Part shown: positions 238 through 22,421 of the stretch, piece by piece
Position numbering within the stretch: position 1 is the first letter of the stretch
Layout of the letters: the number at the start of each line of letters is the position of its first letter
From: Candidatus Aenigmatarchaeota archaeon
Lineage (GTDB): Archaea; Aenigmatarchaeota; Aenigmatarchaeia; QMZP01
NCBI GenBank assembly: GCA_038999435.1
Contig: JAVZYR010000010.1
Location: 1-22,423, forward strand
Length of the DNA stretch: 22,423 nt
Direction: 5' to 3'
Made by a program: the position numbers and the translations under genes
Notes under the pieces: generated by a model
The model's database searches: none
Seen by the model: only the letters and a program-made list of their open reading frames with translations
Told to the model about the DNA's origin: nothing

Positions 238-473
238 TTGATGGTTTGTTTAGCTACTTGCTTTGCCTTCCTTCAGCCCAAGGTGGGAAGCAAAATTATA
301 CCAAGGCTGAAATAGAAGCGCAAACTAATAGGATTTAGCCCAACACCATCAAATCCAAAACCAGAAGATATAGGGTCCCCGTCAAAGGTTCATCCCCACT
401 CAGCCCTTAATAGATATGACTGTAAGAAAAACTGGTTTGCAATTCCAGTTTTTATATCGGGCTGACATGGGAT
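238..473 (-). ncRNA. Candidate structured ncRNA of unknown family (two long hairpins)
   Basis: No long ORF. Nested inverted repeats span 392-473 and 238-352. G-U pairs favour the minus strand. TTTTAAATA lies about 20 nt upstream of the first stem. Confidence 0.5.
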
Positions 474-492
474 ATTAAATTTTACAATTATG

Positions 493-508
493 TATTTAAA
501 AGGTTTTC
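493..508 (-). promoter_or_regulatory. Archaeal BRE/TATA promoter for the candidate ncRNA
   Basis: Minus strand reads GAAAACC-TTTTAAATA (TATA 501-493); the predicted start near 473 coincides with the base of hairpin 1. Confidence 0.5.
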
Positions 509-528: not shown

Positions 529-705
529 CTAATATGCCCTTTTCTTCATCCAGCAGTCTTTGCAATAAACTGGCCTACCTTCTGTTGGCTTGAAAGGGAC
601 TTCGCATCCCTTTCCACATTCGCTACAAACTGCTTTATGCATCTCGCGTGGGCCAGATGTCCTTTTAAAGCCATGTGCTCGAAAAGGCCTGTTCAAATCT
701 CTCAT
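529..705 (-). CDS. CxxC-x17-CxxC zinc-ribbon protein
   Basis: REMHKAVCSECGKGCEVPFKPTEGRPVYCKDC is the family signature. Start moved to ATG 705 because GGAGGT (714-709) precedes it. Confidence 0.9.
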   Translation of the reverse strand: MRDLNRPFRAHGFKRTSGPREMHKAVCSECGKGCEVPFKPTEGRPVYCKDCWMKKRAY

Positions 706-726
706 CTTACCTCCTTTAAACATAAA

Positions 727-4384: not shown

Positions 4385-5917
4385 TTATTCCCGTCTATAT
4401 AAATCATCAACGAGCTTCTTTCCCGTTCTTTTTTCCCACTCTTCAAAACTTATGCCTTGTGACTCTTGATGTTTATCTCTATACCATTCTGGTATCACAT
4501 TAAATGCACAGAAAGGTATAATTCGCCCATCTGTCATGGCATAATGTATACAGCATCTTTTGACCCGTTCGATGTCATAATTGTATTTATCCATAAAGTG
4601 CATCATACCAACAAAAAGCGCTTTATGATGGAATGCCCCGAGTGCAGTATAATCATGTTTCATCAATGCATTATAAATTATCGATGCAAGATTGAACCCT
4701 TTTGGTGATTTTTTCTTATCGATGAAAGAGCCAATCTTAAAGAGCATCTTTGCAGCCACAATATACTTCGACCTACCATTTTCAATCTCTTCTGCCTTTT
4801 CATTAAGATATTCTAGCAACCCCTCAACATCGACAAACCTTGTTATTGGTAGCATGTTTCCATTTTCATTAAAGATGTATGTTGCCATGCCACATGCAAA
4901 ATGAGAGCTTAGGTCATATTGAGCCTTTTTAGTTATCGCCTCTACAAATCGTGTTATAGGATAGATTGTAGGTACAGGATAGAAATCATCCTCTGTCACC
5001 TGTCCATTTGTCTGCTCTTCTATCTTAGCTATAACCTCAGGTATGGTTATTCTCATCCTCTGTCTCTCTGCATTTGTTATCCTGCCAACAAGCGAAACAG
5101 GCTGGTAATTTACCCCTTTAACTATGTCATTGTTTTTAAAACCAAACCGCAAAATATCACCAATCTCATGGTCATTTATGCCTTTTATAATTGTTGGTAC
5201 AAGCACAATGCTGTTTATACCTGCTTTTCTGCAGTTCTCAAAGAGGCCGCTTATCTCCCAATGATTTTTTGGATTAGTTTTTTCACTCACACCATCATAA
5301 CTTAAGTATAATGTATTCACCCCTGCCTCTTTTACTGCTTTGGCAAGTTCAAGGTCTTTTGATAGCCTTATACCATTCGTATTAAGCTGTACATGGTCAA
5401 CACCATACTTTTTACAAATTTTTATTATTTCTACCAAATCATTTCTCAATGTTGGCTCTCCTCCGGTTAGTTGTATCGCATTACATCTAACCGGCCTTTC
5501 ATTGACAAGCATCTTTACCATTTCTTCTATTTGTTGCAAACTTGGTTCATAGACATATCCAACCCGACCTGCGTAAAAGAAACAATACCAGCAATTTAGA
5601 TCACAACGGTTTGTCACAACAAGATTTGCAAGGGCCGTATGTGATTTATGAAGCTTGCATAGACCACAATCAACAGGACATATTGGTTTTTCTTTATTCA
5701 CGTTTGGGTTCCATATCCCTTTTCCATCATGCGCAAATCGCTTTGCTTTTTTGTAAAGTTTATAAGAGCCCCAGTATAAATCATCAAATTTGCCATGTTC
5801 AGGGCATTTTTTCGTAATCCATACTTTTCCACCCTTTTCAAAAACTGTTGCCTTTAAGATTTTGTTGCATTCAGGGCAGATTGAACTTGTGATTTTCAAA
5901 ATCTTCAATCTTGGCAT
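4385..5917 (-). CDS. tes: Tetraether lipid synthase (Tes / GDGT-MAS, MJ0619 family radical SAM)
   Basis: N-terminal CPEC...CPEH metal site, CPVDCGLCKLH cluster motif, TNRCDLNCWYC rSAM motif, C-terminal HFACG...MHFMDKYNYDIERVKRCCIHY...IIPFC; 510 aa. Confidence 0.88.
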   Translation of the reverse strand: MPRLKILKITSSICPECNKILKATVFEKGGKVWITKKCPEHGKFDDLYWGSYKLYKKAKRFAHDGKGIWNPNVNKEKPICPVDCGLCKLHKSHTALANLVVTNRCDLNCWYCFFYAGRVGYVYEPSLQQIEEMVKMLVNERPVRCNAIQLTGGEPTLRNDLVEIIKICKKYGVDHVQLNTNGIRLSKDLELAKAVKEAGVNTLYLSYDGVSEKTNPKNHWEISGLFENCRKAGINSIVLVPTIIKGINDHEIGDILRFGFKNNDIVKGVNYQPVSLVGRITNAERQRMRITIPEVIAKIEEQTNGQVTEDDFYPVPTIYPITRFVEAITKKAQYDLSSHFACGMATYIFNENGNMLPITRFVDVEGLLEYLNEKAEEIENGRSKYIVAAKMLFKIGSFIDKKKSPKGFNLASIIYNALMKHDYTALGAFHHKALFVGMMHFMDKYNYDIERVKRCCIHYAMTDGRIIPFCAFNVIPEWYRDKHQESQGISFEEWEKRTGKKLVDDLYRRE

Positions 5918-18812: not shown

Positions 18813-21800
18813 CTATCTAATCTTTTTCCTTATTTCTTTTGCCTCTCTGACCCTTGCTGATTTGTTGTTGGATGGCTTTTCTTTCTTTGATTTTATCATC
18901 TTTCTTGCCTTTGCTGCACCAAATACTGCAACAATACCTACGATAAATCCACCTATACCTGCAATACCTGCTGGATTTGCAATTATCAAACCTATCAGGC
19001 CACCGATACCAGGCTGTGCACCTGCTTGACAATCTGCTGAACAGTCTTCGTTAGGTTCACATATACCATCACCACATACAGGACCTATTGAGATGCTTGG
19101 CTGTCCTGTAACATTAGATACATTAGTAACATTCGTTACATTTACTGTAACATTAGATACATTAGTAACATTCGTTACATTAGTTGTTACTGTTCTTATG
19201 TACCATCCACCACCTGCGTAGCCACCATATCCACCTTTTCTATTGACTGTTATGTTTATCTGGGCCCAGGCTGTCTTGTTACTGTTGCTCACATCAAGCC
19301 TTGTTGTGTAGACAGCAGGGGATGTGTATGTGTGACTTATCGTATTTCCATTTGTTGTTGTGTTGCCATCTCCAAAGTTCCATGTGTATGAAGAAGGCGT
19401 CATTCCTGATACTGTTGCTGTGAATGTAACTGTTAGTGGTGCATAGCCAGATGTTGGGCTTGCAGACAGGCTTATGCTTGGTATCTCTGATGGGTTTGTG
19501 ATGTTCATGCCTGTTTCATTTGAACACCAGTTTATGCCACATATTGTTCCATTGATGAGTATGCCATTCTCGATCCATGCATCGTATAGGCTAACATTTG
19601 CAAGGGTTGAATTGATGACCACTGAGTTTGTTGCATTGACATTGGTCAAGTTTGAAACTGTAACATTTGTGTTGATCAGATTTGAATCTGTGATTGTAGA
19701 ATTGTTCACCATCGAATCTATCAAGTTCGAGCCTATTATGTTTGAATTGTTAGTTACATTTGAGTTGCTAAGGTTTGATGCTCTAATATACGCATCAGTT
19801 ACTGATGCATTCACAAGTGTTGAGTCATAAACTTCTGATCTTGTAATATTAGACCAGATTACACGTGAGCCATTGACAGTTGAATTTATGATTCTGAATC
19901 CTCCTTCAAGATAGTTGTTTGTTACATTACTTCTTGAGATGAGCCATGGCCCTGTTATATTCCATGTGTTAGGCTCAGTAACATATGATCCTATTTCTCC
20001 TGGGAACGGTGAGCAAGGTATGTTCTGGTTTATAATTTCTATAACTTTTGTTGGATCATCATAATCAGTTATGATTATACTGCATATGTTTGAATTTTCT
20101 ATCCTAAGAACGCCAACTGGTACCTGTATGTTAACATTTACCAATGTTGAGTTTGTTATGTTTGCCCTGTTTGGATTGCCTGTTATGTTTGAATTGTTTA
20201 TAGCTGGGCAATCTCGTATTATTGTATCATTGATATTGACCAATCCTGCAGTTGAATTGTTTGGATAATAAACACCATCTATCCATGAATTGTATATCCA
20301 TCCTGTGTCTGTTGGTGGGACTGCAGTCACATTTGTTATTGTGCTGACTGTGTCTGTCACGCTTGAATTATCAGCATCTATGGCTGTGACATTGACTGTG
20401 TAAAGACCTGGATTGTTTGCCATAACCGTCAGCGTAATTGTGCCTGTCTGACTTGCATTTAGGGTTATTTGAGATTGGCTAAGCTGTACAGAATCAGCGC
20501 CATTGATATTGTTGAACGTTATGTTATATGTGTTGACAGTACTGCCTGTGTTATTAATGTAAATTGTATAGTTTGCAGATTGACCAGGAACAACTGTTTG
20601 GTTTGTTGGCACTGCCCATATATCAACGCCATATGTTGGTGGAAGGGCTGTGATTTCAATGACTATAGAATCTGTATCTGTAAGGCCACCGCTGTCTGTA
20701 ACAGTGAGAGTGATGTTATGCACACCCACTGGCAATGCAGATGTTGAAAAGCCAACACTTCCATTTACATCTGGTGGGTTGTTGTTCAGCAAACCACTAA
20801 TATTGCTTGTCCAAGTTATTGATAAGTTAGTGTTTGCTGTTTCTGCATCTGTAGCGAGACCTGTGAAATTGATTAAAGTGCCTGAAATATATGATGAACC
20901 AGTTGATGGTGCTGTTATAATTGCATTTGGTGGTGTGTTAGGAACTGTTGTATTTACTGTAAACCAAACTTCAGCAGAGCCGATATTACCAGCGTTATCA
21001 ATTGCATAAACTATGATATTGTGCGTACCATCACCAACGGTTATTGTGGTGTTTGGTGTGAATGTTACATTACTTGCACCATCTAAGCTGTACTGCCATA
21101 TGCTCACTGGCTCATTCGCTGTCACATTTAATGCGATGTTTGAGGTTGTATAGGTTGTATTTTGCGGTGAAATGATATTAACAGTAGGGGCTATAAGGTC
21201 AACTGTTAGTGTTCTCTGAACAGAAGAACCTACAATACCTGCTGTTGTGTTAGCATATACCCTGTATGTATAAGTTCCGCTGACTAGCCCAGATTTTGCT
21301 ATATTGCAACTTACTGATGTTCCTGTACCAACCTTGGTCATGCTCTCGTTAACACCATTCCATTCTATCCAGCATGAATCTATGCTCATTGAAGTATGAG
21401 TAATAGTTGCATTTATTGTGACTGAGTTCTGGTTTGTTATATAACCATCTGCTGGTGTTGGAACAACAAACTGCACAACAGGCGCATTTGTGTCAATTGT
21501 AAACCAAACTTCAGCAGAAGAGCCTAGATTGCCTGAAGTGTCATTTGCCCACACCTTCACATAATGTTGACCATTTGCAAGAGGACCTATGCTTGTATTT
21601 GCACATCCTGGTAGAGTTGTGTTGTTGCCATCAAGTTCATACCAGCAAGTATCAAGATTGGCATCTGTTGCTGTATAATTGAGAAGTATTGTGTCAGTTG
21701 CATATGTTGTGTTCTGTGGTGAAATGATGCTAACAACTGGTGGTGTGACATCATTTATTTGTAAGGTGAAGATATTGCTATCCGTTGCTTCACCATCTGA

Positions 21801-22421
21801 AACTGTTATGTTTATGCTATAGATGCCTGCCTGTGCCTCTATTGGGGTGAAGTTTATTAGACCTGTTGAAGCATTTATATCAAATAGACTTGTGTTGTCT
21901 GACCATACCAGGCTGTCACCATCAATGTCTGTTGCATTGAAGTCGTATGTCCAAGCTGTTCCATCAGCGTTCTTGGTTTGAAGGGATAATATAGGATTGA
22001 TTATTTGTGGGGGTGAGTTTTCAATATCTTTTACAGCTGTTATGTTTCCAGTTGAGAATGCTGTGCCATCGTATGCACCTGCAATCACCAAAACATCATC
22101 ATTTTTATTGCAACCTGCTGATGCTGAGCAATTAAAAATGTCATTTGTTGACCATGTTTGCAGCACAGCACCTGTAGCATTGTTTCTGAATTCATAATAA
22201 TAAGTTATTGTATCGCCTTCCACATCGGTTGAACCTGATGCAGTAGCTACTAGTATTGAGTTTTTGTATGCAGGTGTTGGGGTAATAGTTAAACTTGTTG
22301 GGGCAGTTGGTACATCGTTGACTGGATTGACTGTGATTGTAACAACTGCAGGGCTGCTGTTTGTTTGGCCATCATTTGCAACGTATGTAAAGCTGTCAGT
22401 GCCATTCCAGTTTGCAGCTGG
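18813..22421 (-). CDS. Giant multidomain surface adhesin/glycoprotein (5'-truncated by the window edge)
   Basis: Frame stays open upstream of 22223 (PAANWNGTDSFTYVANDG...VNPVNDVP, tandem-95/Big_9-like). It continues with cadherin-like, Ig-like, PKD (WNFGDG), Asn/Ser-rich beta-helix-like, NVT array, CGDGICE, TM and a basic tail. Confidence 0.9.
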   Translation of the reverse strand, partial: PAANWNGTDSFTYVANDGQTNSSPAVVTITVNPVNDVPTAPTSLTITPTPAYKNSILVATASGSTDVEGDTITYYYEFRNNATGAVLQTWSTNDIFNCSASAGCNKNDDVLVIAGAYDGTAFSTGNITAVKDIENSPPQIINPILSLQTKNADGTAWTYDFNATDIDGDSLVWSDNTSLFDINASTGLINFTPIEAQAGIYSINITVSDGEATDSNIFTLQINDVTPPVVSIISPQNTTYATDTILLNYTATDANLDTCWYELDGNNTTLPGCANTSIGPLANGQHYVKVWANDTSGNLGSSAEVWFTIDTNAPVVQFVVPTPADGYITNQNSVTINATITHTSMSIDSCWIEWNGVNESMTKVGTGTSVSCNIAKSGLVSGTYTYRVYANTTAGIVGSSVQRTLTVDLIAPTVNIISPQNTTYTTSNIALNVTANEPVSIWQYSLDGASNVTFTPNTTITVGDGTHNIIVYAIDNAGNIGSAEVWFTVNTTVPNTPPNAIITAPSTGSSYISGTLINFTGLATDAETANTNLSITWTSNISGLLNNNPPDVNGSVGFSTSALPVGVHNITLTVTDSGGLTDTDSIVIEITALPPTYGVDIWAVPTNQTVVPGQSANYTIYINNTGSTVNTYNITFNNINGADSVQLSQSQITLNASQTGTITLTVMANNPGLYTVNVTAIDADNSSVTDTVSTITNVTAVPPTDTGWIYNSWIDGVYYPNNSTAGLVNINDTIIRDCPAINNSNITGNPNRANITNSTLVNVNIQVPVGVLRIENSNICSIIITDYDDPTKVIEIINQNIPCSPFPGEIGSYVTEPNTWNITGPWLISRSNVTNNYLEGGFRIINSTVNGSRVIWSNITRSEVYDSTLVNASVTDAYIRASNLSNSNVTNNSNIIGSNLIDSMVNNSTITDSNLINTNVTVSNLTNVNATNSVVINSTLANVSLYDAWIENGILINGTICGINWCSNETGMNITNPSEIPSISLSASPTSGYAPLTVTFTATVSGMTPSSYTWNFGDGNTTTNGNTISHTYTSPAVYTTRLDVSNSNKTAWAQINITVNRKGGYGGYAGGGWYIRTVTTNVTNVTNVSNVTVNVTNVTNVSNVTGQPSISIGPVCGDGICEPNEDCSADCQAGAQPGIGGLIGLIIANPAGIAGIGGFIVGIVAVFGAAKARKMIKSKKEKPSNNKSARVREAKEIRKKIR
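19106..19181. repeat. Exact 37-bp direct repeat x2 (period 39) encoding NVTNVTNVSNVT
   Basis: ctgtaacattagatacattagtaacattcgttacatt at 19106-19142 and 19145-19181. Confidence 0.95.

Follow-up and report, generated by a model that had tools for sequence, protein, structure and literature searches.

A putative two-hairpin RNA gene of an undescribed family in one genus of hot-spring Aenigmatarchaeota

To our knowledge, the structured RNAs known in DPANN archaea are almost all universal. Box C/D small RNAs (sRNAs) carry C (RUGAUGA) and D (CUGA) boxes that are joined by a terminal stem as a kink-turn (K-turn), and box H/ACA sRNAs are recognised by an ANA or ACA box on the 3' side of a hairpin, together with a K-turn or K-loop and a two-sided guide pocket. 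Leaderless archaeal mRNAs have the AUG at or near the 5' end, and structured type I toxin mRNAs, RNAIII and SgrS are the bacterial comparisons for small-peptide and dual-function RNAs. Here we compare with such systems a two-hairpin RNA candidate, called the element below, that lies at positions 238–474 on the minus strand of a 22,423-nucleotide (nt) stretch of Candidatus Aenigmatarchaeota DNA (the window; contig JAVZYR010000010.1, designated C10). The source genome, G000, comprises 549 kb in 30 contigs and is 86% complete, and the sequencing runs containing its DNA are hot-spring metagenomes. The element has a defined fold, is conserved with compensatory base changes in a second species, is independent of its neighbours and matches no known RNA family. 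With moderate confidence, we read window 474–238, minus strand, as a gene that stands on its own and encodes a structured RNA of about 235 nt, whose undescribed family has so far been seen in one genus of genome-reduced hot-spring Aenigmatarchaeota.

Fold and conservation of the element

The element occupies a gap, 237–528, that is bounded by a plus-strand open reading frame (ORF; 9–236), for which no family match was found, and a minus-strand zinc-ribbon gene (529–723). An earlier note on this DNA had proposed that the gap encodes two imperfect hairpins separated by a linker of about 40 nt. Minimum-free-energy folds of the minus strand, computed for segments 238–475 and 238–474, contain the same pairs, and the linker, here called the hinge, is 38 nt (390–353). 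Hairpin 1 (391–474, 84 nt) consists of four stems: stem a (474–469/396–391), stem b with the sequence UCAGCCC/GGGCUGA (465–459/406–400), stem c (458–454/417–413) and stem d (453–445/435–427). Its 3'-side bulges, UAUUAA (412–407) and CUUAC, are conserved. The hinge contains the invariant sequence CGGGGACCCU at 381–372. Hairpin 2 (238–352, 115 nt) is built on a basal stem (352–345/245–238 plus 344–342/250–248), followed by the stems GGCUA/UAGCU (340–336/252–256), UUUGC/GCAAA (324–320/262–266) and CUUCU/GGAAG (318–314/267–271), and then by a second copy of the UCAGCC/GGCUGA helix (311–304/279–272); at the DNA level, the inverted repeat TCAGCCC...GGGCTGA occurs twice in the element. In the large internal loop of hairpin 2 the invariant GGGCUAAAU (341–333) faces AGUAGCUAAAC (258–248), and the apical loop contains CUUCCCACC (290–282). 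The folding energy of the whole RNA was -74.1 kcal/mol, and the mean over 200 shuffles was -59.8 (z -3.36), with one of the 200 as good. Hairpin 1 alone gave z -5.29, with none of the 200 shuffles as good, and hairpin 2 alone gave z -3.15, with one as good.

A BLAST search of 61 related genomes returned one short match, in the metagenome-assembled genome (MAG) G001, an aenigmatarchaeote that is 71% complete and is the single other species of the genus in the genome set searched. The match belongs to a full-length counterpart of the element, at 236–462 of locus L003 on contig C78, which together with the folds defines the body of the RNA (hairpin 1, hinge and hairpin 2) as window 238–474. The G001 copy has the same hairpin-hinge-hairpin shape, with z scores of -4.39 for the whole, -5.35 for hairpin 1 and -3.55 for hairpin 2. 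A global alignment of the two copies spans 254 columns at 60% identity, and the mean column identity in a MAFFT alignment is 74%; between the two genomes, 5S rRNA is 93% identical. Conservation is concentrated in invariant blocks of 10–24 nt, and the intervening sequence differs between the species. The blocks are AUCCC(C)AUGUCAGCCC, UUAAGGGCUGA.UGGGGAUGA, the hinge sequence CGGGGACCCU, GGGCYAAAU, the apical-loop sequence CUUCCCACC and AGC.AGUAGCUAAAC.

Where the stems differ in sequence, pairing is kept. Hairpin 1 has 20 pairs in the MAFFT alignment, and all 39 of the 39 cells for G000 and G001 are standard pairs; in stem c, each of the five pairs differs on both sides between the species yet still pairs. 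As a control, the hairpin 1 partners were slid by 1–3 columns, and 31–49% of the cells then paired. Hairpin 2 was misregistered by MAFFT, and for the whole RNA we matched the helices by position ourselves, in a script. This matching gave 42 pairs: 23 have the same bases in both species, and 19 have changed on both sides and remain paired, while no pair is changed on one side only or broken. In the basal and mid helices of hairpin 2 (H2a, H2a2, H2m1 and H2m2), 14 of the 18 matched pairs are changed on both sides in G001. The earlier note had named a folding energy better than that of shuffles, and a homologue showing covariation, as checks on its proposal; both were found.

The note had also assigned the RNA a TATA promoter of its own, and the region 493–508 on the minus strand does look like a promoter, with a TATA-like box, TTTTAAATA, at 501–493, preceded by a purine-rich stretch resembling a B recognition element (BRE) at 508–502. 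The candidate start sites, 474–468, lie 19–25 nt downstream of the end of this box, and the 5' end of the RNA is predicted to fall within 468–474. The 3' end is predicted at about 238, or as far as a T-run at 201–206; this run, the first six-U run 3' of hairpin 2 and a possible terminator, overlaps the 3'-terminal part of ORF 9–236, which is convergent with the element. In G001 a TATA-like sequence, TTTAAAAATA, at L003 207–216 is spaced similarly from the conserved block at the 5' end, and U-runs directly follow hairpin 2. The G001 copy is 55.5% GC and its flanks are 34% GC. Contigs from four DNA runs of one study were uninformative: one run covers 356–475, with 0 differences there and 4 in the zinc-ribbon gene region.

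These features suggest how the element might work. Transcription would probably start from the element's own TATA/BRE-type promoter and end at the U-runs, and the RNA would fold into the two long hairpins with the single-stranded hinge between them. The combination of co-varying stems with invariant loops, bulges and hinge and a repeated helix is the pattern expected of an RNA that is part of a ribonucleoprotein, where specific surfaces are read by proteins or by RNA partners, and the duplicated helix suggests that a dimer, or the same protein twice, would bind. The most likely mode is therefore action in trans as part of a ribonucleoprotein with two equivalent protein sites. Its recognition surfaces would be the invariant parts, namely the 7-bp helix UCAGCCC/GGGCUGA, present once per hairpin, the two bulges (URUUAA and CUUAC), the hinge sequence CGGGGACCCU, the internal loop GGGCYAAAU/AGUAGCUAAAC and, at the apex of hairpin 2, the C-rich loop CUUCCCACC. 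The stems, which co-vary freely, would serve only as scaffold.

A number of points weigh against reading the element as a structured non-coding RNA expressed from the minus strand. With z -3.61 the fold of the plus strand is almost as stable, as hairpins lead one to expect, and folding energy alone cannot assign the strand. The G000 copy is 41.8% GC (genome 38%, 5S rRNA 58%), which is low for a structural RNA if the organism is, as presumed, a thermophile. The pairing values observed for hairpin 1 were reached in 7 of 500 column shuffles. The covariation comes from one species pair, because there are two distinct sequences only, the two metagenome contigs with the element being identical to G001, and the helix matching behind the 42-pair count is our own. 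Genomic sites complementary to seven conserved motifs of the element occur at or below chance. Finally, hairpin 1 contains an ORF of conserved length, which is taken up below.

The element is single copy in G000, and two side observations concern its hinge. The G000 hinge has about 18 more bases than that of G001. These G000-only bases, CUAUAUCUUCUGGUUUUGG (355–372), have several near-copies elsewhere in G000, among them C14:8156–8174 (19 nt, 95%) and C6:24144–24163 (20 nt, 90%), and may represent a common opposite-strand coding word. At about 1686 on C8, a conserved part of the 16S rRNA of this organism is a same-sense near-match, one mismatch apart, to the invariant hinge sequence CGGGGACCCU (372–381), probably by coincidence.

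Described families, neighbouring genes and distribution

No Rfam family matched the window at its gathering score, and a search of 150–620 at E ≤ 10 gave two chance-level matches only, none of them relevant. Model searches and inspection of the folds agree with the earlier note that the element carries no signature of signal recognition particle (SRP) RNA, RNase P RNA, tRNA, or C/D or H/ACA sRNA. From this the note had inferred that the element may be either a new family or a highly diverged housekeeping RNA. The first possibility, given no Rfam match and a homologue with compensatory changes in a second species, is the best reading; the second fails for SRP RNA, 5S rRNA and tRNA, leaving by elimination RNase P RNA alone, whose family core the element does not have.

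The SRP RNA model (RF01857) had no match at the element, and no helix-8 motifs were seen there. SRP RNA was detected in 37 of 41 genomes searched, including G001, where a canonical SRP RNA lies at C21:2990–3262 (165.2 bits, cut-off 96.5), on a different contig from the element. Since G001 has the element plus a canonical SRP RNA elsewhere, the element is not SRP RNA. In the G000 assembly, SRP RNA was not found by the model search or by BLAST with the G001 RNA. As the earlier note had suggested, SRP and RNase P RNAs were looked for elsewhere in the genome: SRP RNA is present in G001 and not found in the G000 assembly, and searches of the two genomes for RNase P RNA found none. Likewise 5S rRNA (RF00001) was rejected, as both genomes have 5S elsewhere (66.7 and 67.3 bits) and there was no match at the element.

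A tRNA was rejected as well. ARAGORN found none in the window, and of the 16 RF00005 matches in G000 none is on contig C10. No UUCRA T-loop was seen by eye on either strand of the element, no tRNA exons flank it or lie inside it, and it shares no sequence with the tRNA-Pro(CGG) intron region or with any other G000 locus. Genes for tRNA are hard to detect in G000, where ARAGORN found 10, five of them with introns; RF00005 matches number 16 in G000, 25 in G001, and 16 and 22 in genomes G023 and G003. The only C/D sRNA match was a weak one to the Rfam family snoZ13_snr52, 19.1 bits against a cut-off of 47, on the plus strand; the UGAUG of this match is the basal stem of hairpin 2, which is fully replaced in G001, and the C/D assignment was rejected. 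An H/ACA sRNA was rejected from folds read by eye, in which no ANA or ACA box is visible after either hairpin, nor a two-sided pocket, K-turn or K-loop.

The neighbouring genes do not account for the element. In G000 the element is preceded by the co-directional zinc-ribbon gene and followed by a convergent ORF; in G001 a membrane-protein gene on its 5' side is divergent from it, and the gene on its 3' side, of 289 amino acids (aa), is convergent. A 3' untranslated region (UTR) or terminator of the zinc-ribbon operon is ruled out because the G001 copy follows a divergent gene, and a 5' leader or riboswitch is ruled out since, in G000 and G001 alike, the gene that comes after the element is convergent. 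The differing neighbours show that the element is tied to no neighbour gene. A NUDIX gene occurs within 1–3 kb of both copies, the two being 35% identical and differently arranged, and apart from it nothing is common to the window and the 3.2-kb G001 contig.

The element has been seen so far only in one genus, in 2 of the 91 genomes of the order, with 0 further real matches in 151 genomes of the phylum. These searches are samples, and failure to find the element in them does not prove its absence elsewhere. A 21-nt pattern, allowed up to 3 mismatches, gave 3 extra matches in the 91 genomes, each with 3 mismatches, and the reversed-pattern control gave 2. R1, a covariance model of hairpin 1 only, scored 123 and 131 bits for G000 and G001 and no more than 17 bits elsewhere in the order. 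Among the 151 phylum genomes R1 had one match, in G113 (24.2 bits), to terminator-like hairpins after a tRNA gene. Metagenome contigs supplied two copies identical to G001 and one unrelated match. A search of all species representatives in GTDB with a hairpin 2 motif found the G001 record and one unrelated match, in Acidobacteriaceae, and the three matches in viral contigs were all to unrelated coding DNA. In the full-text literature on RNase P and non-coding RNA of Aenigmatarchaeota and DPANN archaea, subscription journals and supplements being outside the scope of the search, no such RNA is described.

Several genes in the window are of interest in themselves. The zinc-ribbon protein (529–723, minus strand; 64 aa, CxxC-x17-CxxC) matches PF23477 (E 3e-19) and TIGR04272 (E 1.1e-19). 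Its gene does not adjoin the G001 copy of the element; in G000 it is a neighbour, which does not imply a link to the RNA. Upstream of it, all on the minus strand, are a gene for a 229-aa P-loop NTPase (787–1476) and a radical S-adenosylmethionine (SAM)/SPASM gene (1495–2925). The NTPase has nSTAND3 as its best match (E 1.4e-8), marginal matches to the packaging-type ATPases Pox_A32 and Zot, and no NCBIfam match. The radical SAM/SPASM protein, co-directional with the element and 1 kb upstream of it, is AhbD/NirJ-like and falls below all curated cut-offs. A second radical SAM protein, of 510 aa (4385–5917, minus strand), matches NF045702, the tetraether lipid synthase Tes, with a score of 734.8 bits (cut-off 450). 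This enzyme forms glycerol dialkyl glycerol tetraethers (GDGTs), and the genome here is a DPANN genome of 0.55 Mb. DPANN archaea are usually thought to depend on their hosts for lipids. At the far end, a minus-strand ORF of more than 1,200 aa (18813–22421) runs past the end of the window.

Alternatives: a small protein, RNase P RNA or a DNA feature

Contrary to the earlier note, the gap is not strictly ORF-free. An ORF scan of the minus strand found a 22-codon ORF inside hairpin 1, at 468–400, with the predicted peptide MSARYKNWNCKPVFLTVISIKG. Its G001 counterpart, at L003 243–311, has the same length and the predicted peptide MSAHRYSWTCIFAILLTPVVKG. With an ORF of conserved length in hairpin 1, the RNA might be a small-protein mRNA or a dual-function RNA, the 22-residue peptide being translated from an AUG 0–6 nt from the 5' end and the rest of the molecule serving in stabilisation or regulation. 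Several features fit such a role: the ORF has exactly 22 codons at homologous places in both species, with zero net length change over 69 nt; its start and stop lie in invariant blocks; the codons UGG (Trp) and UGC (Cys) are invariant within an otherwise scrambled interior; and both frames were open in just 7% of shuffles (0.206 x 0.351). Both peptides, moreover, are basic and aromatic in the N-terminal half and hydrophobic in the C-terminal half, and in G000 the co-directional radical SAM/SPASM gene is only 1 kb away.

The pattern of change between the two frames, however, weighs against coding. Over the 17 interior codons, 7, 6 and 5 positions are identical at codon positions 1, 2 and 3, and thus there is no third-position excess of change. 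The peptides share 8 of 22 residues, ungapped, and five of these eight (MSA and KG) lie in blocks with no change at any codon position, a sign of constraint at the RNA level. The stop UGA, at the end of stem b, is just the complement of codon 2 (UCA) in that stem, and the AUG is buried in the loop between two strong stems, a and b. There is no Shine-Dalgarno sequence, whereas the upstream zinc-ribbon gene has GGAGGT. Nor would coding account for the hinge and hairpin 2, which together span 150 nt and contain 14 compensatory pairs. As to the radical SAM neighbour, which is AhbD/NirJ-like and sub-cut-off, the 3.2-kb G001 contig has none. The hydrophobic stretch is 9–11 residues, too short for a membrane helix. 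On balance we think a coding or dual function unlikely, though it is the main alternative, and the ORF makes a concrete candidate for an archaeal micro-protein or dual-function RNA. A more specific version, a precursor of a ribosomally synthesised and post-translationally modified peptide (RiPP) with the radical SAM/SPASM protein as maturase, was rejected: the adjacency is not conserved, and no such gene is found on the whole 3.2-kb G001 contig.

Much less probable than either a non-coding or a coding RNA of a new kind is that the genus has the element as its RNase P RNA, one so remodelled, into two hairpins, that it can no longer be recognised, and that it serves four conserved RNase P proteins. 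Among the 41 genomes searched, the RNaseP_arch model (RF00373) matched 32, scoring between 22 and 124 bits. G000 and G001 are not among the 32: neither has a match at E ≤ 0.001, and the element has none at E ≤ 10. The RNaseP-T model (RF02357) gave no match at E ≤ 1. For the protein subunits, G000 has Rpp29, Pop5, Rpp30 and Rpp21, and G001 has three, Pop5 not having been found. HARP (TIGR03875), presented in PMC6380272 as a protein-only alternative to RNase P, was not found in any of the five genomes searched. Since protein subunits are present and HARP was not found, an RNase P RNA is expected in the genus. Further searches of G000 did not find one: an nhmmer profile of the RNase P RNAs of 20 relatives gave a best E of 8.1, in coding DNA; searches for RNase P motifs and for their co-location gave matches in coding DNA only; and the genes that flank the RNase P RNA genes of relatives show no synteny among the relatives or with G000.

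Identification with RNase P RNA would thus give the encoded subunits a partner, no other RNA candidate having been found in the genus. It would also agree with the scores of Rpp30 (PF01876) in the genus, 46.6 bits in G000 (C26:5066–5530) and 39.6 bits in G001 (C70:1475–1747), which are far below the 90–128 bits of three relatives; Rpp29, Pop5 and Rpp21 of the genus score as in relatives. A reduced RNase P RNA in a hot-spring nanoarchaeon is mentioned in PMC4919917. The AGCCC/GGGCU of stem b is similar to helix P4 of relatives (AGC-U-CC/GGGCU), and its position before stem a is like that of P4 before P1.

Other features weigh against it. The RNase P RNAs of relatives (the 20 listed, all of the same family) are 277–488 nt long and carry, as such or in close variants, the motifs of conserved region (CR) I (GAGGAAGCUCC), CR-IV and CR-V (ACAGAAA..GGGCUAU), and the element has none of these. 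Its GGGCU helix is a local hairpin stem with no bulged U. There is no P1 helix, the 5' and 3' ends being unpaired in the fold of either species, and no nested specificity domain, and the covariance model, as noted, has no match. The missing RNA may instead lie in an assembly gap, given completeness of 86% for G000 and 71% for G001. Such gaps are a sufficient explanation because G000 is without SRP RNA too and 9 of the 41 genomes are without an RNase P RNA match. Nor are the RNAs of the genus generally fast-evolving, as seen from the 165-bit SRP RNA of G001. We therefore give this identification little credence. Were it true, a subunit without the P4/CR-I/CR-V core and P1 closure would still work with Pop5, Rpp30, Rpp21 and Rpp29, and catalysis or substrate positioning would be reorganised in a manner not known from any RNA-based RNase P. 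In either case the genus has RNase P proteins without a findable RNA, which was either missed by the assemblies or is unrecognisable, and the element is a candidate that can be tested at the bench.

Least probable of all is a DNA-level or mobile feature in place of an RNA gene, whether the hairpin ends of a small non-autonomous transposon of the IS200/IS605 type, an inverted repeat bound by a protein or an origin of replication. In its favour, the gene contexts differ between G000 and G001, the inverted repeat TCAGCCC...GGGCTGA is present twice and both strands fold. Against it, the element is single copy in G000, has no transposase or Orc1/Cdc6 gene nearby and no real match in viral contigs, keeps its pairing through complete stem replacement, unlike protein-binding repeats, conserves its single-stranded loops, and has promoter- and terminator-like flanks.

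Comparison with described RNAs

The structured RNA that we favour would be lineage-specific, under selection of a strength that keeps blocks of 10–24 nt invariant while its stems are rewritten, and would point to unknown RNA-based biology in genome-reduced symbionts, where each retained gene is likely to matter. Among the described systems, the type I toxin mRNAs, RNAIII and SgrS share with the element a short ORF in a highly structured RNA, a narrow taxonomic range and a variable location. They differ in that those systems are bacterial, and here no antisense partner and no coding signature is seen; compared with the membrane toxins of type I systems, the peptide here is too short and too little hydrophobic. 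The element resembles archaeal RNase P RNA of type A in its similar size class, in being a stand-alone gene, and in having a GGGCU helix directly before a terminal helix. With archaeal SRP (7S) RNA, of 270–300 nt, it has in common the character of a long, hairpin-rich, GC-enriched, stand-alone RNA. With H/ACA sRNAs the element shares a layout of two hairpins with a single-stranded hinge between them and a tail after.

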